A stretch of DNA of 8,374 bases from a virus (lineage: Duplodnaviria > Heunggongvirae > Uroviricota > Caudoviricetes). The translations under genes were made by a program, and so were the position numbers. The notes beneath the pieces were generated by a model, which saw nothing but the letters and a program-made list of their open reading frames with translations, was not told where the DNA came from and did not search any database. The stretch lies in the IMG/VR virus record IMGVR_UViG_2690316286_000006. The stretch is one strand, 5' to 3'. Below are positions 31 to 8,138 of the stretch, one piece after another (positions within the stretch are counted from its first letter, which is position 1; each line of letters starts with the position of its first letter).

Positions 31-141
31 TTAAAAAGGGCGGACATCAGCCAGCAATGAAACTGATGCCGCCAAAATCCACTCATAAAGTTCATCATCG
101 GTATAGTCTGGCGCGATGATGACGGGTTCTCGTTTCTGCAT
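31..141 (-). CDS. small hypothetical prophage protein (36 aa, MQKREPVIIAPDYTDDELYEWILAASVSLLADVRPF)
   Basis: ATG at 139-141 (minus) preceded by GAGGAA at about 6 nt; stop TAA at 31-33. It is the C-terminal part of the 90-aa ORF in the track, whose upstream part reads as low-complexity out-of-frame overlap with the neighbouring gene. Below the 60-aa cut-off of the track. Confidence 0.4.
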   Translation of the reverse strand: MQKREPVIIAPDYTDDELYEWILAASVSLLADVRPF

Positions 142-169: not shown

Positions 170-298
170 TCAGCCGTTAGATTTTGCCGAACTGGAAAGC
201 GCCTGTTTAAATTCGCTGAAGCTGAGAGCTTCTTCGCCTTCGGCAAGGCCTTCGAAGTATTCTTCGTAAGCCTTTTCCATGATTGTGTCGAAATCCAT
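170..298 (-). CDS. small acidic hypothetical prophage protein (42 aa, MDFDTIMEKAYEEYFEGLAEGEEALSFSEFKQALSSSAKSNG)
   Basis: ATG at 296-298 (minus), 1 nt after the stop of the upstream 51-aa gene (translational coupling); stop TGA at 170-172. Size and position recall the small ydaF/ydaG-type genes flanking the Rac repressor, but I cannot confirm identity from memory. Confidence 0.45.
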   Translation of the reverse strand: MDFDTIMEKAYEEYFEGLAEGEEALSFSEFKQALSSSAKSNG

Positions 299-299
299 A

Positions 300-455
300 T
301 CACTCACCTGAGTTTCTTTCCAGCCAGCGACGCGCGCCAGCTTCGGTTTTAAACGTTTTGCTTTTGGTATAAGTCATGGCGGTGAACGTTCCATCCTGGT
401 TGGGGAACACGCCACATACCAGAGATTCGTTGTTGCCAAGATCGATAGTATTCAT
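300..455 (-). CDS. small hypothetical prophage protein (51 aa, MNTIDLGNNESLVCGVFPNQDGTFTAMTYTKSKTFKTEAGARRWLERNSGE)
   Basis: ATG at 453-455 (minus) with GAGG 6 nt upstream; stop TGA at 300-302. Not in the ORF track because it is under 60 aa. Confidence 0.5.
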   Translation of the reverse strand: MNTIDLGNNESLVCGVFPNQDGTFTAMTYTKSKTFKTEAGARRWLERNSGE

Positions 456-599
456 GTTGACCTCATTTCCCCTTAACGCCGGGTGGCGGAACTAAAACCT
501 GCTGCACTGCAAAATTTGAACCCTGCCGTCATGTTCTTACGCCTCGGGCTGGCTACTTAACCCCTGACCACTGCCTGGTAACTCGAAGTATTGCCCTGC

Positions 600-727
600 G
601 TTCTGTGGGGCGGGGTGGGTTGATGGATACAATCTACAAATTAAAATTTAATTGGTCAATATATTTATTATTAAATTTGTAATTGCGAACGATTGCATTA
701 GTCCCAAAATGGGACTATCATGCAGTT
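600..727. promoter_or_regulatory. AT-rich promoter/operator region upstream of higB
   Basis: AT-rich tract 630-690 between divergently oriented genes. Inverted half-sites TACAAAT (635-641) and ATTTGTA (675-681). 14-mer TTAAATTTGTAATT (671-684) identical to 1913-1926. Perfect inverted repeat GTCCCA-AAA-TGGGAC at 701-715, 13 nt before the higB ATG. No convincing -35/-10 pair could be pinned down by eye. Confidence 0.45.
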
Positions 728-1030
728 ATGAAGATCATCTCAGTTAAAACACTCAGGGATTTTTGGGCGGAGAATCCCGATGCAGAACAACCGCTAAGGG
801 CATGGGTGGATGAGGCAGCAAAAGCTGACTGGAAAAGCCCGGCAGACATTAAGGCACAATACCGAACGGCTAGTATATTGAAAAGCCGGCGTGTGGTATT
901 CAACATAAAAGGTAATCATTACCGTTTAATTGTTGCAATTGCGTATCAGCGAGGATGGGTATTTGTTAAATTCATCGGAAGCCACAAGGAATACGATGCC
1001 ATTGATGCTGATACCATCGAACTGGAGTAA
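728..1030 (+). CDS. higB: type II toxin HigB (RelE/ParE-fold mRNA interferase, YgjN-type), 100 aa
   Basis: Translation MKIISVKTLRDFWAENPD...VVFNIKGNHYRLIVAIAYQRGWVFVKFIGSHKEYD aligns from recall with E. coli HigB (VFN...HKEYD C-terminal motif, N-terminal MxxIxxKxLxD). Toxin-first order with antitoxin 2 nt downstream. The track ORF starts at TTG 683; the ATG at 728 matches the homologue N-terminus. Confidence 0.85.
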   Translation: MKIISVKTLRDFWAENPDAEQPLRAWVDEAAKADWKSPADIKAQYRTASILKSRRVVFNIKGNHYRLIVAIAYQRGWVFVKFIGSHKEYDAIDADTIELE

Positions 1031-1032
1031 GC

Positions 1033-1392
1033 ATGAACATCAAACCTATTCGTACAGAGCAAGATTATGAAGCCGCGTTGCGTGCTGTTGAGCCTATGTT
1101 CGACAATGAACCGGAAATTAACACGCCTGAGGGGGATTTCTTTGAGGTGATGTGTTTGCTAATAGAGGAATATGAAAAAAAACATTATCCCATTGAGCCA
1201 CCATCCCCAATTGAAGCTATAAGATTTCGCATGGAACAGCAGGGGCTGACCGTGAAAGATTTGGAACCCGCAATTGGGAAAAAAAATCGGGTTTACGAGG
1301 TGTTGAATGGCACCAGAAGCCTTACGTTACCAATGATTCGCCGTCTTCATAATCAATTTGGTATCCCCTTGGAAAGCTTGGTGGGATTATAA
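1033..1392 (+). CDS. higA: HigA antitoxin, HTH (XRE-type) DNA-binding protein, 119 aa
   Basis: ATG 2 nt after the higB stop; GGAG inside the higB 3' end acts as SD. C-terminal ...RSLTLPMIRRLHNQFGIPLESL matches the HigA HTH region (compare E. coli HigA ...LTLEHAKKLATRFGISPALF, recalled). Confidence 0.85.
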   Translation: MNIKPIRTEQDYEAALRAVEPMFDNEPEINTPEGDFFEVMCLLIEEYEKKHYPIEPPSPIEAIRFRMEQQGLTVKDLEPAIGKKNRVYEVLNGTRSLTLPMIRRLHNQFGIPLESLVGL

Positions 1393-1418
1393 AATCTGCT
1401 AGTCATTTGCCTGATACT

Positions 1419-1436
1419 CGTTCCAGAAAAGGAACG
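1419..1436. terminator. hairpin between convergent higA and repressor genes (candidate bidirectional terminator)
   Basis: Perfect 6-bp stem CGTTCC/GGAACG with 6-nt loop AGAAAA, 26 nt after the higA stop and abutting the repressor stop (1439-1441). A T-run (1446-1457) exists but is 10 nt away and inside the repressor gene, so the intrinsic-terminator call is weak. Confidence 0.3.
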
Positions 1437-1438
1437 CA

Positions 1439-1831
1439 TCAGGCAGTTTTGTTTTTCTGCCGCAGTAACTCTTCAAGTTTTCGTTTATAGAAATCGCGTT
1501 TTTGCTCCATATCTCGAATGATCTGCTCTGCGTCGCTTTGAGGTAACTCATCTAAAAGCGATATGATTTTTCGTTGCTGTTCTGTAAGTTGCGGTTGGTT
1601 GTCATTAGTGGATACAGCCATCTTATCGCCGAGAGCTTCTTCTTCCATAAAGAACCAATGGACGGGATGTTGTGAGAGCTCTGCTAATTTTTCCAGTTTA
1701 TCCATTCTTGGCATCACGCCTTTCAACCAACCTTGCACGGATTGGGGTTTTACACCAAGACGTCTTCCCAGCTCTGACTGGTTTATATTCAATTCCTGCA
1801 ACACCTGCTGAAGGCGTTTTACAAAGATCAT
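1439..1831 (-). CDS. prophage repressor, XRE/Cro-CI family HTH protein (RacR/CI-like), about 130 aa
   Basis: HTH signature NINQSELGRRLGVKPQSVQGWLKG near the N-terminus; charged helical C-terminal part; no S24 peptidase-like motif evident. Divergent from a Cro-like gene across a 126-bp AT-rich spacer. Start taken as ATG 1829-1831 (minus); the GTG at 1835-1837 is an alternative. Confidence 0.8.
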   Translation of the reverse strand: MIFVKRLQQVLQELNINQSELGRRLGVKPQSVQGWLKGVMPRMDKLEKLAELSQHPVHWFFMEEEALGDKMAVSTNDNQPQLTEQQRKIISLLDELPQSDAEQIIRDMEQKRDFYKRKLEELLRQKNKTA

Positions 1832-1837
1832 CACCAC

Positions 1838-1957
1838 CCCTCGAAAACTAATCTCGCAATTCTACAGAAAAAATTGATAAGTGGCATTACAAATAGAAGT
1901 TGAAATTTAAAATTAAATTTGTAATTATCGATGCCATCGTAAAGTTTGGAGGGAAAC
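1838..1957. promoter_or_regulatory. divergent promoter/operator region between repressor and ydaS (PRM/PR analogue)
   Basis: AT-rich spacer between divergent HTH genes. Inverted half-sites TACAAAT (1888-1894) and ATTTGTA (1917-1923). Rightward candidate -35 TTGAAA (1900-1905) with -10 near 1922-1928; leftward -10-like TAGAAT on the minus strand (plus 1859-1864). SD GGAGGG at 1948-1953 before the ydaS ATG. Promoter hexamers are by-eye guesses. Confidence 0.5.
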
Positions 1958-2230
1958 ATGCAAAAAAGTACTCAAATAAAAATCCTGTCGATAATGAGCC
2001 AATCAGAATTAGGGCGTCGTCTTGGTAAAACTCCACAAACCATAAGTGGGTGGTTTAAAAAACGAGTTCCTGCGGAGGAGGTTATTCCTGCATGTGAGGC
2101 GCTTGACTGGGGAGTGACTCCGCATGAATTGCGCCCTGATAAATACCCTAACCCGACCGACGGTTTACCTGTTGGATGTAAGGTTAACAGATCAAATGAA
2201 CCGGAGTTGATTCATGAAAATCAGGCATGA
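1958..2230 (+). CDS. ydaS: Cro-like HTH regulator, YdaS family, 90 aa
   Basis: ATG 1958 with GGAGGG SD 5 nt upstream (track ORF starts at TTG 1946). HTH SQSELGRRLGKTPQTISGWFKK and the conserved ...ELRPD... motif recalled from E. coli YdaS. First gene of the rightward operon. Confidence 0.8.
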   Translation: MQKSTQIKILSIMSQSELGRRLGKTPQTISGWFKKRVPAEEVIPACEALDWGVTPHELRPDKYPNPTDGLPVGCKVNRSNEPELIHENQA

Positions 2231-2639
2231 ACACATCCGCATGGCGATGAATACCTGGGCGCATCCGGACGGTGAGAAAGTACCGGCTGCAGAGATTACC
2301 AAAGCGTATTTTGAACTGGGAATGACGTTTCCGGAGCTGTACGACGATTCACATCCGGAAGCCCTGGCTCGCAATACTCAGAAAATTTTCCGCTGGGTGG
2401 AGAAAGACACCCCTGATGCAGTTGAAAAAATTCAGGCGTTGTTACCAGCGATCGAAAAGGCAATGCCACCTTTGCTGGTGGCCAGAATGCGCAGCCACAG
2501 TTCAGCTTATTTTCGGGAGCTGGTGGAGACGCGGGAACGACTGGTGAGAGATGCTGATGATTTTGTCGCAGTGGCGATCGCCGGTTTCAACCAGATGAAT
2601 CGTGGTGGCCCGGCGGGAAATGCCGTGGCTGTACATTGA
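2214..2639 (+). CDS. ydaT: YdaT-family protein (toxic early protein of Rac-like prophages), 141 aa
   Basis: Begins MKIRHEHIRMAMN..., matching the N-terminus of E. coli YdaT as I recall it. GGAG SD at 2203-2206; overlaps the ydaS 3' end by 17 nt. The reading frame is confirmed in-window: against the divergent copy at 3540-3857 most differences are synonymous third-position changes. Confidence 0.85.
   Translation: MKIRHEHIRMAMNTWAHPDGEKVPAAEITKAYFELGMTFPELYDDSHPEALARNTQKIFRWVEKDTPDAVEKIQALLPAIEKAMPPLLVARMRSHSSAYFRELVETRERLVRDADDFVAVAIAGFNQMNRGGPAGNAVAVH
2474..2526 (+). other. two Chi octamers (5'-GCTGGTGG-3') 45 bp apart within ydaT
   Basis: Exact GCTGGTGG at 2474-2481 and 2519-2526, same orientation. 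The duplicate block has the second octamer at 4392-4399; the divergent allele keeps only one (CCGCTGGTGGCT, around 3697-3704). Confidence 0.6.
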
Positions 2640-2649
2640 GGAAGCATTA

Positions 2650-3381
2650 ATGAAATCATCGACGCTTGAGAAAAACCAGAAGGTTTTCAGCCCCTTTAAT
2701 AAAAATCTCGGGGGAGTGAAATTCGTAAAGACCATCAACAGAATAACTACCGCAATTTTCGCATGCCTTCTCATATGCCATGAAGGCATGGCTGAGTCTT
2801 CGCGCTTTCCTGGCGCTAAGCATTCTTTCGAGTTCAGCGATATCACGCGGGCTAATTTGCACTATGTTGAGAAGCCCTTTTCTGGCAAGGTTAATTTTTT
2901 GCATCAATTCGGCCGCGATAGGATCTGCGATTGCGTTGAATTCCTTGCGTCTGTCCCTGTTTACTGCCAGCCAATGACCGAAACAGATACCCAACCCAAA
3001 GGTAATCACGGTCCATATGAACGAAATGAGAGCTGGATTCGTATTGAACAAGGTAACAAATTCACTCCAGATAGTATCCATGGTTCTCGCCGATTACTCC
3101 TGGTTCTGCTGGCTGGCGCTGTGATTGTATTTCCGTCAGGGGTTTACTTTGGTCTAAAGGCAGTATGCAGACGTGATTATGCCCGAAGACGTTATACAGG
3201 GAAAGCACCGGTTCTTGGTGTTCTTTCAGTCCTGGTAATCCCGAAGAAAGTGAAATGTCGCAGATGGCAGATCTGGGAGCAGCGTCAATGGTTCCGTGAT
3301 ATGAACCTTAGTCACGGTATTGATATTGCGTACCAGGATACCCGGAACTGGAAAAAACTGGTAGCGGAGCGCTGGTATTAA
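2650..3381 (+). CDS. hypothetical protein, 243 aa (ORF X), in accessory cassette between ydaT and the initiator; coding status uncertain
   Basis: ATG 2650 with GAGGAAG SD 5 nt upstream, 10 nt after the ydaT stop; stop TAA 3379-3381 lies 2 nt before the initiator ATG (operon-like packing). The last 100 codons (3082-3381) lie outside the minus-strand ORF and use CTG-rich Leu codons. Against: W, C and R content is unusually high, and the ORF is in exact antisense register with the 141-aa minus ORF. The track ORF starts at GTG 2602 inside ydaT. Confidence 0.4.
   Translation: MKSSTLEKNQKVFSPFNKNLGGVKFVKTINRITTAIFACLLICHEGMAESSRFPGAKHSFEFSDITRANLHYVEKPFSGKVNFLHQFGRDRICDCVEFLASVPVYCQPMTETDTQPKGNHGPYERNESWIRIEQGNKFTPDSIHGSRRLLLVLLAGAVIVFPSGVYFGLKAVCRRDYARRRYTGKAPVLGVLSVLVIPKKVKCRRWQIWEQRQWFRDMNLSHGIDIAYQDTRNWKKLVAERWY
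2656..3081 (-). CDS. hypothetical membrane-anchored protein, 141 aa (N-terminal TM helix ALISFIWTVITFGLGICFGHWLAV, charged helical C-terminal domain); coding status uncertain
   Basis: ATG at 3079-3081 (minus); stop TGA at 2656-2658, 16 nt from the ydaT stop (convergent). Protein-like layout with one hydrophobic helix followed by amphipathic charged segments. Candidate -10 TACAAT on the minus strand (plus 3124-3129). The SD is weak or distant (AGGAG 15 nt upstream). Frequent AGA/AGG Arg and CTT/CTC Leu codons. Exact antisense register with ORF X. Confidence 0.4.
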   Translation of the reverse strand: MDTIWSEFVTLFNTNPALISFIWTVITFGLGICFGHWLAVNRDRRKEFNAIADPIAAELMQKINLARKGLLNIVQISPRDIAELERMLSARKARRLSHAFMAYEKACENCGSYSVDGLYEFHSPEIFIKGAENLLVFLKRR

Positions 3382-3383
3382 TT

Positions 3384-3529
3384 ATGGCTACTTCATGGCT
3401 CAGATTATGGCATGACATGCCAAATGATCCCAAGTGGCGAACAATTTCCAGGGTGTCAGGGCAGCCAATCGCAACGGTGATGGCGGTTTATGTTCACCTT
3501 CTGGTGAGTGCGTCACGAAATGTCACGAC
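3384..3529 (+). CDS. O-like replication initiator, N-terminal fragment cut by N-gap (MATSWLRLWHDMPNDPKWRTISRVSGQPIATVMAVYVHLLVSASRNVT...)
   Basis: ATG 3384 two nt after the ORF X stop. Identical to 5257-5402. Ends in the first two GTCACG iteron copies (3512-3527) before the gap. Confidence 0.6.
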
Positions 3530-3539
3530 NNNNNNNNNN
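3530..3539. other. assembly gap (10 N)
   Basis: Run of n. Sequence on either side belongs to different genes (initiator 5' part, then ydaT 3' part), so it is a scaffold join, not a small sequencing hole. Confidence 0.95.
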
Positions 3540-3857
3540 ATGACGTTTCCGGTTCTGCATAACGACAGCAAGCACAACACGCTTTATCTCAACACCCAAA
3601 AGATTTTCCGTTGGCTGGATAAAGACACCCCTGACGCTGTTGAAAAAATTCAGGCGTTGTTACCTGCGATCGAAAGGGCAATGCCACCTCCGCTGGTGGC
3701 TCGAATGCGCAGCCACAGTTCAGCTTATTTTCGGGAACTGGTGGAGACGCATGAACGACTGGTGAGAGACGCTGATGATTTTGTCGCAGTGGCAATCGCC
3801 GGTTTCAATCAGATGAACCGTGGTGGCCCGGCAGGAAATGCTGTGGCAGTACATTGA
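3540..3857 (+). CDS. ydaT: ydaT-like gene, 3' fragment (C-terminal 105 aa) of a divergent allele/paralogue; 5' end lost in gap
   Basis: MTFPVLHNDSKHNTLYLNTQKIFRWLDKDTPDAVEKIQALLPAIERAMPPPLVARMRSHSSAYFRELVETHERLVRDADDFVAVAIAGFNQMNRGGPAGNAVAVH parallels ydaT residues 37-141 with mainly synonymous DNA changes in the conserved part; stop TGA 3855-3857. Confidence 0.65.
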   Translation: MTFPVLHNDSKHNTLYLNTQKIFRWLDKDTPDAVEKIQALLPAIERAMPPPLVARMRSHSSAYFRELVETHERLVRDADDFVAVAIAGFNQMNRGGPAGNAVAVH

Positions 3858-3928
3858 CTGACAATAGCCATATCGAATCGCTCCCGGCAACTCGTGAGTA
3901 AAAAGATTCGGTATCAGAAGAGGTGAGT

Positions 3929-4370
3929 ATGGCTAACGCCTGGCTCAGATTATGGCATGACATGCCAAATGACCCTAAGTGGCGAACAATTGCCAGGGTG
4001 TCAGGGCAGCCAATTGCAACAGTGATGGCAGTGTATATCCACCTCCTGGTGAGCGCGTCACGAAATGTCACGCGAGGTCACATTGATGTCACGACAGAAG
4101 ATTTGGCAAGTGCGCTCGACGTGACAGAAGAGGTAATTGATTCAATTTTGCAGACGATGCAGGGGCGGGTACTTGATGGTGATTTAATCACTGGATGGGA
4201 AAAACGCCAGGTGCTTAAAGAGGACAACGGCAATATTTCGCAAACCGCAAAATCTCCTGCAGAGCGCAAGAGGGCGCAGCGAGAGAGGGAAAGAAAGCGG
4301 GAACAAAATGGCGATTGTCACGGCGCGTCACGAAATGTCACGCACATGTCACGACGAGTCACGACAGATA
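3929..4370 (+). CDS. O-like replication initiator, divergent allele, 5' part (MANAWLRLWHDMPNDPKWRTIARVSGQPIATVMAVYIHLL...); 3' end lost in gap
   Basis: ATG 3929 with GAGGTG upstream, 71 bp after the ydaT-like stop and with no cassette in between. Homologous to 5257 onwards with mostly third-position differences. Contains iteron clusters at 4057-4093 (4 copies) and 4317-4363 (5 copies). Confidence 0.65.
4057..4093 (+). repeat. iteron cluster 1 of the divergent allele: 4 direct GTCAC(G/A) copies at 10-11 bp spacing
   Basis: GTCACG at 4057, 4067 and 4088, GTCACA at 4077. The corresponding cluster in the other allele (5385-5442) has 6 copies. Confidence 0.7.
4317..4363 (+). repeat. iteron cluster 2 of the divergent allele: 5 direct GTCACG copies at 10-11 bp spacing
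   Basis: GTCACG at 4317, 4327, 4337, 4348 and 4358; near-identical to 5819-5865. Confidence 0.7.
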
Positions 4371-4381
4371 NNNNNNNNNNN
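4371..4381. other. assembly gap (11 N)
   Basis: Run of n. Joins the initiator mid-gene to the ydaT 3' end, so it is a scaffold join. Confidence 0.95.
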
Positions 4382-4512
4382 ATTTTCGGGAGCTGGTGGA
4401 GACGCGGGAACGACTGGTGAGAGATGCTGATGATTTTGTCGCAGTGGCGATCGCCGGTTTCAACCAGATGAATCGTGGTGGCCCGGCGGGAAATGCCGTG
4501 GCTGTACATTGA
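4382..4512 (+). CDS. ydaT: ydaT 3' fragment, exact duplicate of 2509-2639
   Basis: Identical by eye to the end of the full ydaT gene; start of the redundant block 4382-5402. Confidence 0.6.
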
Positions 4513-4522
4513 GGAAGCATTA

Positions 4523-5254
4523 ATGAAATCATCGACGCTTGAGAAAAACCAGAAGGTTTTCAGCCCCTTTAATAAAAATCTCGGGGGAGTGAAATTCGTA
4601 AAGACCATCAACAGAATAACTACCGCAATTTTCGCATGCCTTCTCATATGCCATGAAGGCATGGCTGAGTCTTCGCGCTTTCCTGGCGCTAAGCATTCTT
4701 TCGAGTTCAGCGATATCACGCGGGCTAATTTGCACTATGTTGAGAAGCCCTTTTCTGGCAAGGTTAATTTTTTGCATCAATTCGGCCGCGATAGGATCTG
4801 CGATTGCGTTGAATTCCTTGCGTCTGTCCCTGTTTACTGCCAGCCAATGACCGAAACAGATACCCAACCCAAAGGTAATCACGGTCCATATGAACGAAAT
4901 GAGAGCTGGATTCGTATTGAACAAGGTAACAAATTCACTCCAGATAGTATCCATGGTTCTCGCCGATTACTCCTGGTTCTGCTGGCTGGCGCTGTGATTG
5001 TATTTCCGTCAGGGGTTTACTTTGGTCTAAAGGCAGTATGCAGACGTGATTATGCCCGAAGACGTTATACAGGGAAAGCACCGGTTCTTGGTGTTCTTTC
5101 AGTCCTGGTAATCCCGAAGAAAGTGAAATGTCGCAGATGGCAGATCTGGGAGCAGCGTCAATGGTTCCGTGATATGAACCTTAGTCACGGTATTGATATT
5201 GCGTACCAGGATACCCGGAACTGGAAAAAACTGGTAGCGGAGCGCTGGTATTAA
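4523..5254 (+). CDS. ORF X, exact duplicate of 2650-3381
   Basis: Offset of +1873 relative to the first copy; the track shows identical translations. Confidence 0.4.
   Translation: MKSSTLEKNQKVFSPFNKNLGGVKFVKTINRITTAIFACLLICHEGMAESSRFPGAKHSFEFSDITRANLHYVEKPFSGKVNFLHQFGRDRICDCVEFLASVPVYCQPMTETDTQPKGNHGPYERNESWIRIEQGNKFTPDSIHGSRRLLLVLLAGAVIVFPSGVYFGLKAVCRRDYARRRYTGKAPVLGVLSVLVIPKKVKCRRWQIWEQRQWFRDMNLSHGIDIAYQDTRNWKKLVAERWY
4529..4954 (-). CDS. 141-aa membrane-anchored hypothetical protein, exact duplicate of 2656-3081
   Basis: Offset of +1873; identical translation in the track. Confidence 0.4.
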   Translation of the reverse strand: MDTIWSEFVTLFNTNPALISFIWTVITFGLGICFGHWLAVNRDRRKEFNAIADPIAAELMQKINLARKGLLNIVQISPRDIAELERMLSARKARRLSHAFMAYEKACENCGSYSVDGLYEFHSPEIFIKGAENLLVFLKRR

Positions 5255-5256
5255 TT

Positions 5257-5524
5257 ATGGCTACTTCATGGCTCAGATTATGGCATGACATGCCAAATGA
5301 TCCCAAGTGGCGAACAATTTCCAGGGTGTCAGGGCAGCCAATCGCAACGGTGATGGCGGTTTATGTTCACCTTCTGGTGAGTGCGTCACGAAATGTCACG
5401 ACATGTCACGACGTGTCACGACGTGGTCACATTGATGTCACGACAGAAGATTTGGCAAGTGCGCTCGACGTGACAGAAGAGTCAATTGATTCAATTTTGC
5501 GGGCAATGCAGGGGCGGGTACTTG
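5257..5524 (+). CDS. O-like replication initiator, 5' part (N-terminal domain plus iteron-encoding linker); interrupted by N-gap
   Basis: ATG 5257 two nt after the ORF X stop. N-terminus MATSWLRLWHDMPNDPKWRTI... conserved against the 3929 allele with synonymous differences. Contains iteron cluster 5385-5442. Initiator assignment rests on position upstream of the P-like gene and on the internal iterons, not on recognised homology to lambda O. Confidence 0.65.
5385..5442 (+). repeat. iteron cluster 1: 6 direct GTCAC(G/A) copies at 10-11 bp spacing (candidate ori element inside the initiator gene)
   Basis: GTCACG at 5385, 5395, 5405, 5415 and 5437, GTCACA at 5426. Helical-turn phasing. Encodes ...SRNVTTCHDVSRRGHIDVTT... 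in the initiator frame. Confidence 0.7.
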
Positions 5525-5597
5525 NNNNNNNNNNNNNNNNNNNNNNNNNNNNNNNNNNNNNNNNNNNNNNNNNNNNNNNNNNNNNNNNNNNNNNNNN
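5525..5597. other. assembly gap (73 N)
   Basis: Run of n. The last about 78 bp before the gap and the first about 80 bp after it are two variants of the same segment (EDLASALDVTEESIDSILRAMQGRVL versus EDLASALDVTEEVIDSILQTMQGRVL), so the join duplicates sequence. Confidence 0.95.
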
Positions 5598-6243
5598 AGA
5601 AGATTTGGCAAGTGCGCTCGACGTGACAGAAGAGGTAATTGATTCAATTTTGCAGACGATGCAGGGGCGGGTACTTGATGGAGATTTAATCACCGGATGG
5701 GAAAAACGCCAGGTGCTTAAAGAGGACAACGGCAATATTTCGCAAACCGCAAAATCTCCTGCAGAGCGCAAGAGGGCGCAGCGAGAGAGGGAAAGAAAGC
5801 GGGAACAAAATGGCGATTGTCACGGCGCGTCACGAAATGTCACGCACATGTCACGACGAGTCACGACAGATACAGATAAAGATACAGATAAAGAAGATCA
5901 AAACACTATGGTCCATGGCGTAAAAAACGCCACGAACCAGGCAGGGGATGTTCAGACCGTCAATCCTGGTCAGCCAGCAGGCTCGACACCGGAAGCCGAT
6001 TCAGCGTATGCGCTGAAAGCCGATTCGGGCGCTGTGCAGCAGGTGATGACCGCAAGGCCGGAGCAATCACTCCAACTGCAGCAGCCTGAAGCCGATTCCG
6101 CCATTCAGCGGGAAGCCGATCGGGTAGCCCCGGAAAACACCGGGCAGCCTGTGGGACGAGTGGATTATCCGGATGTGTTCGAACAGGTCTGGCGGGAATA
6201 CCCGTTGCGTGCCGGGGCAAACCCGAAGAAATCCGCATTCAGT
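5598..6243 (+). CDS. O-like replication initiator, middle part (linker with iteron cluster 2, low-complexity PEADSA repeats, start of a C-terminal domain ...DYPDVFEQVWREYPLRAGANPKKSAF); bounded by gaps
   Basis: Continuous open frame; 5' part nearly identical to 4096-4370 of the divergent allele. Motif W-x-x-YP-x-R-x-G is reminiscent of C-terminal domains of phage replication initiators (recollection, not checked). Confidence 0.55.
5819..5892 (+). repeat. iteron cluster 2 (5 GTCACG copies at 10-11 bp spacing) followed by a tandem 12-mer GATACAGATAAA x2
   Basis: GTCACG at 5819, 5829, 5839, 5850 and 5860; 12-mer at 5869-5880 and 5881-5892 (encodes DTDKDTDK). The same 12-mer-derived sequence restarts the scaffold after the big gap (6557-6577). 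Confidence 0.7.
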
Positions 6244-6556
6244 NNNNNNNNNNNNNNNNNNNNNNNNNNNNNNNNNNNNNNNNNNNNNNNNNNNNNNNNN
6301 NNNNNNNNNNNNNNNNNNNNNNNNNNNNNNNNNNNNNNNNNNNNNNNNNNNNNNNNNNNNNNNNNNNNNNNNNNNNNNNNNNNNNNNNNNNNNNNNNNNN
6401 NNNNNNNNNNNNNNNNNNNNNNNNNNNNNNNNNNNNNNNNNNNNNNNNNNNNNNNNNNNNNNNNNNNNNNNNNNNNNNNNNNNNNNNNNNNNNNNNNNNN
6501 NNNNNNNNNNNNNNNNNNNNNNNNNNNNNNNNNNNNNNNNNNNNNNNNNNNNNNNN
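6244..6556. other. assembly gap (313 N)
   Basis: Run of n. The flanks are in different reading frames and the right flank restarts at the GATAAAGATACAGATAAAGAA repeat already seen at 5872-5892, so continuity across the gap is unknown. Confidence 0.95.
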
Positions 6557-7839: not shown

Positions 7840-8138
7840 TCCCACAGAGAGGGACTGAGAGTGAAAAAACAGCCAGACAGGAAGCGTCCGGAACAGAAAA
7901 CACGGGTCAGCATGCAGATGTGACAGAAGTTGTTCAGCCAATCCCTGCGTTTACTGAAAAACAGCAGGATTATGTGATTCTGCCATCACTGCATGCGGCA
8001 AACCGTGAGCTGCGCCGGGCAAAAGGTCAGGTCCAGAAGTGGGAGCGTATCTGCGCCGCGCTACGGGAGCTGAATAAACACCGGGACGTTGTCCGGCAGA
8101 TTGTCGACTCTTCCCGCCGTGTTGCATCGGAAAAGTGA
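7830..8138 (+). CDS. hypothetical phage protein, up to 102 aa; start uncertain (GTG 7830 or GTG 7920)
   Basis: Only long ORF in this interval; no in-frame ATG. N-terminal 30 residues are low-complexity. The C-terminal part ...LRRAKGQVQKWERICAALRELNKHRDVVRQIVDSSRR looks helical and protein-like. Overlaps the previous gene by 10 nt if the GTG at 7830 is used. Confidence 0.4.
   Translation: MDLIPQRGTESEKTARQEASGTENTGQHADVTEVVQPIPAFTEKQQDYVILPSLHAANRELRRAKGQVQKWERICAALRELNKHRDVVRQIVDSSRRVASEK

Follow-up and report, generated by a model that had tools for sequence, protein, structure and literature searches.

The window analyzed here, a stretch of 8,374 nt, has the layout of a Qin/Rac-type lambdoid prophage from E. 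coli, and strain VL40 of this species matches its positions 1-2640 at 100% except for an IS4 in cro. Two of its promoter regions, one upstream of the toxin gene higB and the other in the gap between the prophage repressor gene and a cro-like gene, have several short words in common. Which promoter do these words serve on the higB side, and do they connect the higBA toxin-antitoxin pair to the lysis-lysogeny switch? As argued below, positions 631-684 very probably correspond to OL/PL and positions 1886-1925 to OR of this prophage, and the toxin-antitoxin pair would then lie next to the switch as a separate unit.

The inverted half-site pair TACAAAT/ATTTGTA and the 14-mer TTAAATTTGTAATT are found exactly where the first-pass annotation had placed them. 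The 14-mer occurs only at 671-684 and 1913-1926, even if two mismatches are allowed, and none of 200 shuffles contained two matches. ATTTGTA and its complement occur four times in the 8374 nt (635-641, 675-681, 1888-1894, and 1917-1923) against 1.04 expected by chance, a number reached by 2 of 200 shuffles; all four copies fall in the two regions. The longest exact word common to both regions measures 15 nt (ATTAAATTTGTAATT, 670-684 = 1912-1926) and is not itself palindromic. It lies within a direct repeat in which 663-684 and 1905-1926 agree at 20/22 positions. The stretch 635-651 shows 88% complementarity to 1907-1923. All but one of the four half-sites can be lengthened to 9 nt, reading ATTACAAAT at 1886-1894 and ATTTGTAAT at 675-683 and 1917-1925. 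Sharing of 15 nt was reached by none of 1000 dinucleotide-preserving shuffles of both regions (shuffle maximum 13), nor by any of 1000 shuffles of the AT-rich cores alone (maximum 14). The sharing between the two regions is real and non-random.

On the left side, the words fall into the following arrangement:

Left of ydfB, minus strand: ydfC remnant, truncated.
307..170, minus strand: ydfB, after ydfA.
300..455, minus strand: ydfA-like gene (DUF1391), first of the leftward operon (Pfam 1.6e-29; RefSeq annotation of the identical VL40 locus).
456..624, minus strand: early-left operon leader (ydfA/dicB-type), common to thousands of heteroimmune E. coli prophages.
631..659, minus strand: PL, predicted leftward early promoter (promoter scan; -35 TTGACC at 659..654, 17-nt spacer, -10 TAGATT at 636..631).
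635..651: OL-a, candidate promoter-proximal operator TACAAATTAAAATTTAA, filling the PL spacer and overlapping the -10.
663..684: OL-b, candidate distal operator with the core TTAAATTTGTAAT, just upstream of the PL -35 (half-site ATTTGTA at 675-681).

The gap between ydfA and higB is 272 nt long. Within it, PL reads ATTACAAATTTAATAATAAATATA-TTGACC-AATTAAATTTTAATTTG-TAGATT, then GTATCCATCAACCCACC, with a predicted start at ~624; no significant structure emerged when the initial 70 nt of its leader were folded (z = -0.16). The motifs thus overlap a predicted leftward promoter of ydfA-ydfB-ydfC, the positional homologue of dicBp, and not the higB promoter. Past the 3' end of the repressor gene there would therefore be a second operator set, placed over a promoter directed outward into the early-left genes. 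Further left, a DicF sRNA match (38-87, minus strand) adjoins the truncated ydfC; it scores 43.3 bits over the full model (E = 1.7e-7), below the Rfam gathering score of 48, and an Rfam scan of 1-2700 returned nothing beyond this sub-threshold match. The first 43-76 nt of the window match unrelated phages at 87-100% (Actinobacillus 100%, Aeromonas 87%).

The K-12 prophage Qin offers the closest view of how such a promoter is controlled. Upstream of ydfA, Qin carries TTGACC-GATATGTTAGTCATGGC-TAATCT-TGTTTGCATCAACACACC; this promoter, dicBp, and the window PL agree in the TTGACC -35 and in spacer length (17 nt), and their transcripts would begin with homologous sequence (CATCAAC.CACC). As the PL analogue of Qin, dicBp is repressed 22-fold by DicA, and its operators have been described as like those of the dicA-dicC gap (PMC10448788); the repression by DicA is experimental (PMC10448788, PMC3441716). 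The word TGTTAGTCAT is present both in the dicBp spacer and in the DicA operator Oc, which reads TTGTTAGTCATAACTAACAA (Oc from PMC3441716). Qin and the window also agree in the order cro-like gene, OR, short non-cleavable HTH repressor, and PL into ydfA-ydfB-ydfC. On the other hand, the operator is TTGTTAGTCATAACTAACAA in Qin but of the ATTACAAAT type here, the two repressors are only 22% identical and belong to different immunity types, and no toxin-antitoxin cassette separates dicA from dicBp in Qin.

The right region is organized as follows:

1439..1831, minus strand: prophage repressor, 130 aa (Pfam: only HTH_3/HTH_26, residues 6-51).
1859..1887, minus strand: candidate PRM (promoter scan; -35 ATGCCA at 1887..1882, 17-nt spacer, -10 TAGAAT at 1864..1859).
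1886..1904: OR-a, candidate operator ATTACAAATAGAAGTTGAA, abutting the PRM -35 and overlapping the PR -35.
1900..1928, plus strand: PR (promoter scan; TTGAAA at 1900-1905, 17-nt spacer, AATTAT after TG).
1907..1925: OR-b, candidate operator TTAAAATTAAATTTGTAAT, filling the PR spacer and overlapping the -10, and so mirroring OL-a at PL.
1958-2230, plus strand: cro-like gene, YdaS family (Pfam).
2214-2639, plus strand: CII-like gene, YdaT family (Pfam).

The repressor and cro-like genes are divergent and separated by 126 nt; in this gap PR, which reads TTGAAA-TTTAAAATTAAATTTGT-AATTAT, and the candidate PRM are overlapped or abutted by inverted ATTACAAAT/ATTTGTAAT. YdaS and YdaT correspond to Cro and CII by functional analogy (PMC8630535). 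The right part of the window (2509-6556) holds four N runs (3530-3539, 4371-4381, 5525-5597, and 6244-6556) and repeated blocks (2509-3529 = 4382-5402 at 100%; 4096-4370 vs 5598-5872 at 99%), which produce duplicate or chimeric ORFs of the YdaT 3' end and of the replication gene. These runs and repeats look like a scaffolding or assembly artefact, or masked sequence, and not like biology.

Pfam finds no S24 peptidase domain in the repressor. The protein aligns over its full length with DicA (22% identity over 125 aa, E 2e-7) and is related to an O157 prophage repressor (32%, E 5e-22) and, by tblastn, to the repressors of Gifsy-1/2 (32%) and SPN3UB (40% identity); a Sodalis homologue, 71% identical, is annotated as DicA. 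By its size, its domain content, and its full-length homology, the predicted protein is a repressor of the DicA/PaaR2/Gifsy type. Given that a peptidase domain is lacking, induction would need an antirepressor rather than RecA cleavage, as is known for DicA/Rem and the Gifsy phages (PMC10448788). Rha/Ash-family genes, which may hint at an antirepressor, lie in the left arm of the VL40 prophage (L001) and of two other loci (L113, L114).

Each region would hold two sites facing inward. Their outer half-sites span 47 bp on the left and 36 bp on the right, a difference of 11 bp or about one helical turn, and the centres of the two sites are 30 bp apart in OL and 19 bp apart in OR. When a single dyad-symmetric operator unit was sought, the 17-mers turned out to combine a strong outer half with a weak inner half. 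With at most one mismatch, the 11-mer TTAAATTTGTA is found only in OL-a, OL-b, and OR-b (1913-1923) in 16 kb of the identical VL40 prophage.

The conservation of these elements was followed in ten OL and ten OR sequence variants. OL-a is invariant in 10/10 OL variants and OL-b nearly so, its ATTTGTA half-site being altered in one variant (L013); in OR, OR-a is unchanged and the ATTTGTA half-site is altered in one variant (L025). The PL -35 is TTGACC in all variants but one (TTGACT in L027), the PL -10 is TAGATT or TAAATT, and the PR -35 is constant. The bases between the sites vary, and so do the 11 nt that separate the end of the OL-b half-site from the higB -35.

More diverged relatives were examined as well, with repressors 88% (E. 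coli), 74% (Salmonella), and 71% (Salmonella, Sodalis) identical to that of the window. Their ORs are colinear with the window OR, the OR-a half-site covaries, and the half-sites are variants of one word on one side (ATTACAAAT, ACTGCAATT, ATTACAATT, ATTGCAATT) and of its counterpart on the other (ATTTGTAAT, ATTTGCAAT, ATCTGTAAT). The two-site layout around the PL -35 is kept in the 88%, 74%, and 71% relatives, with PL hexamers in matching position in L112, L114, and the Sodalis prophage L120. For instance, the left regions of L114 (Salmonella; CTACAATTTTTATGATAAAAAGTGA-TTGACT-AGTTAAATTTTAATTTG-TAGATT) and of L120 (CTGCAATTTTAAATTTAAATAATC-TTGACT-GCTTATGTTTTTATTTG-TAGAGT) both align site for site with the window. 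The Sodalis prophage has no higBA, and its OL follows the repressor gene after ~200 nt; the two-site OL would thus be ancestral to this repressor family and independent of the cassette. In L114, with the 74% repressor, the OL half-sites are of the TACAA type and the OR half-sites of the TGCAA type, so that covariation of OL and OR is loose; either the repressor accepts both A and G at this position, or the left and right ends of the module differ in history. PL and OL of the Salmonella relatives L116-L119, in which PLD-like or PaaA2 genes follow the repressor gene, were not located in the 3 kb fetched.

Sibling prophages of other immunity types were compared at the same positions. An O157 prophage (L110) carries TTGACA-17-TAGATT before the same leader, and a 17-mer is common to this PL slot and its own OR (0/1000 shuffles); in phage Tritos, a 13-mer plays the same part (1/1000 shuffles), while the 10-mer shared by PL and OR in Rac-SA53 is not significant (80/1000 shuffles). 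The words in the PL slot differ among K-12 Qin, L110, and Tritos, each immunity type having its own. These comparisons bear on the possibility of a chance likeness between AT-rich promoters, or of a generic H-NS, IHF, or UP-element tract. Both cores are indeed ~80% AT, and AT-rich promoters look alike, but this explanation is left with a negligible probability by the shuffles of the cores described above, by half-sites that stay near-constant amid variable spacers, and by words that change with the immunity type at the same positions.

The higBA genes occupy the interval between the repressor gene and the left region:

688..1393, plus strand: higBA cassette; DNA homology to enterobacterial cassettes of 14 other genera is confined to this interval.
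693-721, plus strand: predicted higB promoter (-35 TTGCAT at 693-698; -10 TATCAT at 716-721).
700-716: palindrome AGTCCCA-AAA-TGGGACT, the candidate operator of HigA, which other genera also conserve ahead of higB.
728-1030, plus strand: higB, HigB_toxin (PF09907) 5e-33.
1033-1392, plus strand: higA, HTH_3 4e-6, matching the E. coli K-12 HigA structures 5ifg/5ycl.
1407..1458, plus strand: hairpin (1407-1446) followed by a T-run (fold -21.5 kcal/mol, z = -3.56, 0/200 shuffles as stable).

We collected 80 higBA loci from other genera, of which 69 could be evaluated for upstream half-sites. TACAAAT/ATTTGTA was found within 150 nt upstream of higB in 0/69 of these foreign loci, and no repressor, cro, or ydfA lies near higBA in any of the 80. 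What these cassettes have instead is AGTCCCA-N3-TGGGACT, and in 19 of the 21 gamma-/betaproteobacterial loci listed a TAnnAT -10 follows it immediately. In 10 of 12 two-copy loci, two such palindromes are 29-30 bp apart, with the -35 between them and TAnnAT at the 3' end of the proximal copy. The window cassette has kept the proximal palindrome (700-716), which is probably the HigA operator, and has lost the distal one. The candidate phage operator motif TACAAAT/ATTTGTA is therefore not part of the higBA cassette. The K-12 HigBA pair (YgjN/YgjM) is a distant relative (E ~2e-9) that likewise has a HigB_toxin (PF09907) toxin and, after it, an antitoxin whose HTH is C-terminal; the window cassette differs in the loss of the distal palindrome and in being embedded in a prophage immunity region.

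HigA itself, rather than the phage repressor, might bind the shared motif and cross-regulate the immunity switch, as its HTH domain and the position of its gene between the two regions could suggest. To this reading we give hardly any credence, because HigA relatives (79-90%) in other genera have AGTCCCA-N3-TGGGACT upstream and lack the motif, and because this palindrome is absent from the repressor/cro gap, its sole other loose match in the window being at 8031.

A further scenario is that higBA arrived by recombination within the operator region and carried a copy of it along, as already put forward in the first-pass annotation, or created a duplicate of OR. It finds a point of support in the 20/22 repeat, which ends 4 nt before position 688, the start of the cassette. 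However, the left edge of higBA DNA homology is at 688-702, to the right of the motif; none of the 69 foreign cassettes has the motif; and a two-site OL is present in the higBA-less Sodalis prophage, with analogous two-site OLs in K-12 Qin and in O157 prophages. High identity between OL and OR is moreover normal in lambdoid phages, as in lambda OL1/OR1. A cassette-borne duplication is thus very improbable. Overall, chance, HigA binding, and cassette-borne duplication were rejected on the basis of the shuffles, the foreign cassettes, and the higBA-less Sodalis OL.

The higB ATG lies 6 nt past the conserved TAnnAT -10 (716-730 in the window; L028-L048), in 13 loci from several genera the start codon comes 12 nt after the palindrome core, and there is no good Shine-Dalgarno sequence at normal spacing before higB; these observations suggest that the higB mRNA is leaderless in this HigBA family. 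Downstream of higA, a simple terminator scan of 400-2300 gave no match, and the hairpin was found by folding. Positions 1407-1458 are the probable higBA terminator, overlapping the last codons of the convergent repressor gene, and such a terminator would keep higBA transcripts from going antisense into the repressor gene. In this reading, higBA forms an independent cassette, placed between repressor gene and putative OL and equipped with its own predicted promoter and palindrome.

Could the phage operators nevertheless act on higB? The proposal had been that higBA is read from a promoter under repressor or Cro control, and in that form it does not stand: the motifs overlap the predicted PL, and higB appears to have its own promoter and operator (693-721). 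A milder version is that repressor or Cro controls the higB promoter through 663-684 in addition to PL, coupling the toxin-antitoxin pair to the lysis-lysogeny decision. The OL-b half-site ends 11 nt upstream of the higB -35 (693-698), and the 14-mer 671-684 occupies the slot of the distal HigA palindrome present in other cassettes, 29-30 bp from the proximal one; being one turn from the higB -35, it could modulate higB. At lambda PRM, a repressor site abutting the -35 activates. DicA at Oc likewise activates dicA (PMC3441716). Against such control, OL-b does not overlap the higB core promoter, the 11 nt between them vary freely, and the higB promoter and operator are complete, autonomous, and conserved across genera. 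The same site is found equally far from PL in a prophage that lacks higBA; nothing therefore requires an effect of repressor or Cro on higB, and control of PL suffices to account for the site. We therefore regard direct control of higB as unlikely. The same low likelihood applies to a co-option of OL-b in which bound repressor or Cro, or an OL-OR loop around the 1.25-kb higBA-repressor segment, modulates higB transcription; if this were true, toxin-antitoxin stoichiometry would be linked to the lysogenic state.

With repressor and OR as query, megablast and blastn retrieved 148 of 5426 E. coli genomes at identities of 95% or more; higBA as query also gave 148 E. coli records, at a coverage of at least 80%. 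No prophage of exactly this immunity type without higBA was found among the 148 E. coli genomes and 23 IMG/VR loci; given that all of them carry the cassette, the independence of the operators from higBA rests on the more distant relatives. In the phage collection, the flanking arms alone match and no record has the whole module. Homology to more than 3000 heteroimmune E. coli genomes stops at ~617-646, at the predicted PL start, which is where the boundary of an immunity module would be expected. In L002-L004 the same module is flanked by different left and right arms, the pattern of a mosaic exchange. In the VL40 prophage (L001 8091-9437), IS4 splits cro, and IS600 and IS1 copies lie in both arms; with IS4 in cro, this prophage copy would be defective and is probably locked in the repressed state.

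From these data, the following scheme can be proposed. The 130-aa repressor would recognize half-sites of the ATTACAAAT type, and the YdaS-type Cro probably does so too. In the lysogen, the repressor would sit on both regions, blocking PL (ydfA operon) and PR (cro, ydaT, replication). With OL-a in the PL spacer and -10 and OL-b upstream of the -35, occupancy would shut off ydfA-ydfB-ydfC; in sibling prophages, this operon continues to dicF, dicB/kil, and recombination genes. By binding next to the PRM -35, the repressor probably activates its own transcription, much as DicA acts from Oc (PMC3441716). Competition by Cro for these sites is also probable, YdaS having this role in CP-933P (PMC8630535). 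The spans of 47 and 36 bp, one turn apart, would fit an oligomer contacting two sites on one helix face; PaaR2, for comparison, is an octamer (PMC8630535). The 20/22 identity may then reflect selection for one protein binding both ends of the immunity region, in the manner of lambda OL1/OR1. As for higBA, it would be transcribed toward the repressor gene, starting at its own promoter and stopping at the hairpin and T-run. The operator-like nature of the sites in the two promoter regions, and their probable reading by repressor or Cro, is the part of the original idea that the comparisons uphold; its two specific scenarios for higBA are not.

Two further systems can be set beside this scheme. 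In CP-933P/Sp12 of O157:H7 (paaR2-paaA2-parE2), the interval from repressor gene to PL likewise contains a toxin-antitoxin pair, the OL operators (PL933P, OL1-3) resemble those of OR, the repressor has no peptidase domain, and YdaS and YdaT are the Cro and CII analogues (PMC8630535); its PL is repressed by both PaaR2 and YdaS (PMC8630535). Binding of the repressor (and Cro) to both operator sets, with repression of PL and PR, has been shown for Qin and CP-933P (PMC10448788, PMC8630535). In CP-933P, however, the toxin-antitoxin genes are co-transcribed with the repressor gene and the antitoxin has no DNA-binding domain, and hence depends on the repressor, whereas higBA in the window is convergent to the repressor gene and has its own predicted promoter, an HTH-containing HigA, a palindrome, and a putative terminator. 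The comparison with lambda is similar in its outline. Near-identical operator sets flank the repressor gene in both, each overlapping an outward early promoter, and lambda too has a slot for accessory (moron) genes between cI and OL (rexAB). Lambda differs in having three 17-bp operators per side, a RecA-cleavable repressor, and the N/nut system, whereas the window apparently has two sites per side, with spacings of 30 and 19 bp, and a repressor without a cleavage domain.

The slot between repressor gene and PL is a recurrent site for accessory genes in this prophage group: it contains RelB/RelE-ParE in O157 (L110 2764-3242), higBA in the window (688-1393), PaaA2 and a TM2 protein in Salmonella Javiana (L118 3454-3645), and a 424-aa PLD-like protein in S. 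diarizonae (L116 3506-4780).

The architecture described here follows the usual lambdoid OL/OR plan, for which Qin and CP-933P are precedents; as for the operator sequence, it appears to be undescribed. Our analysis predicts, from sequence, which operators and promoters an uncharacterized immunity type uses. Of 5426 complete E. coli genomes, 148 carry this type, among them O103:H2 strain 12009 and O45:H2 strain FWSEC0003. The toxin-antitoxin pair would be a self-contained passenger here and not part of the switch. It would represent one more toxin-antitoxin cassette in the repressor-PL slot, and the general view of lambdoid immunity regions would remain unchanged.
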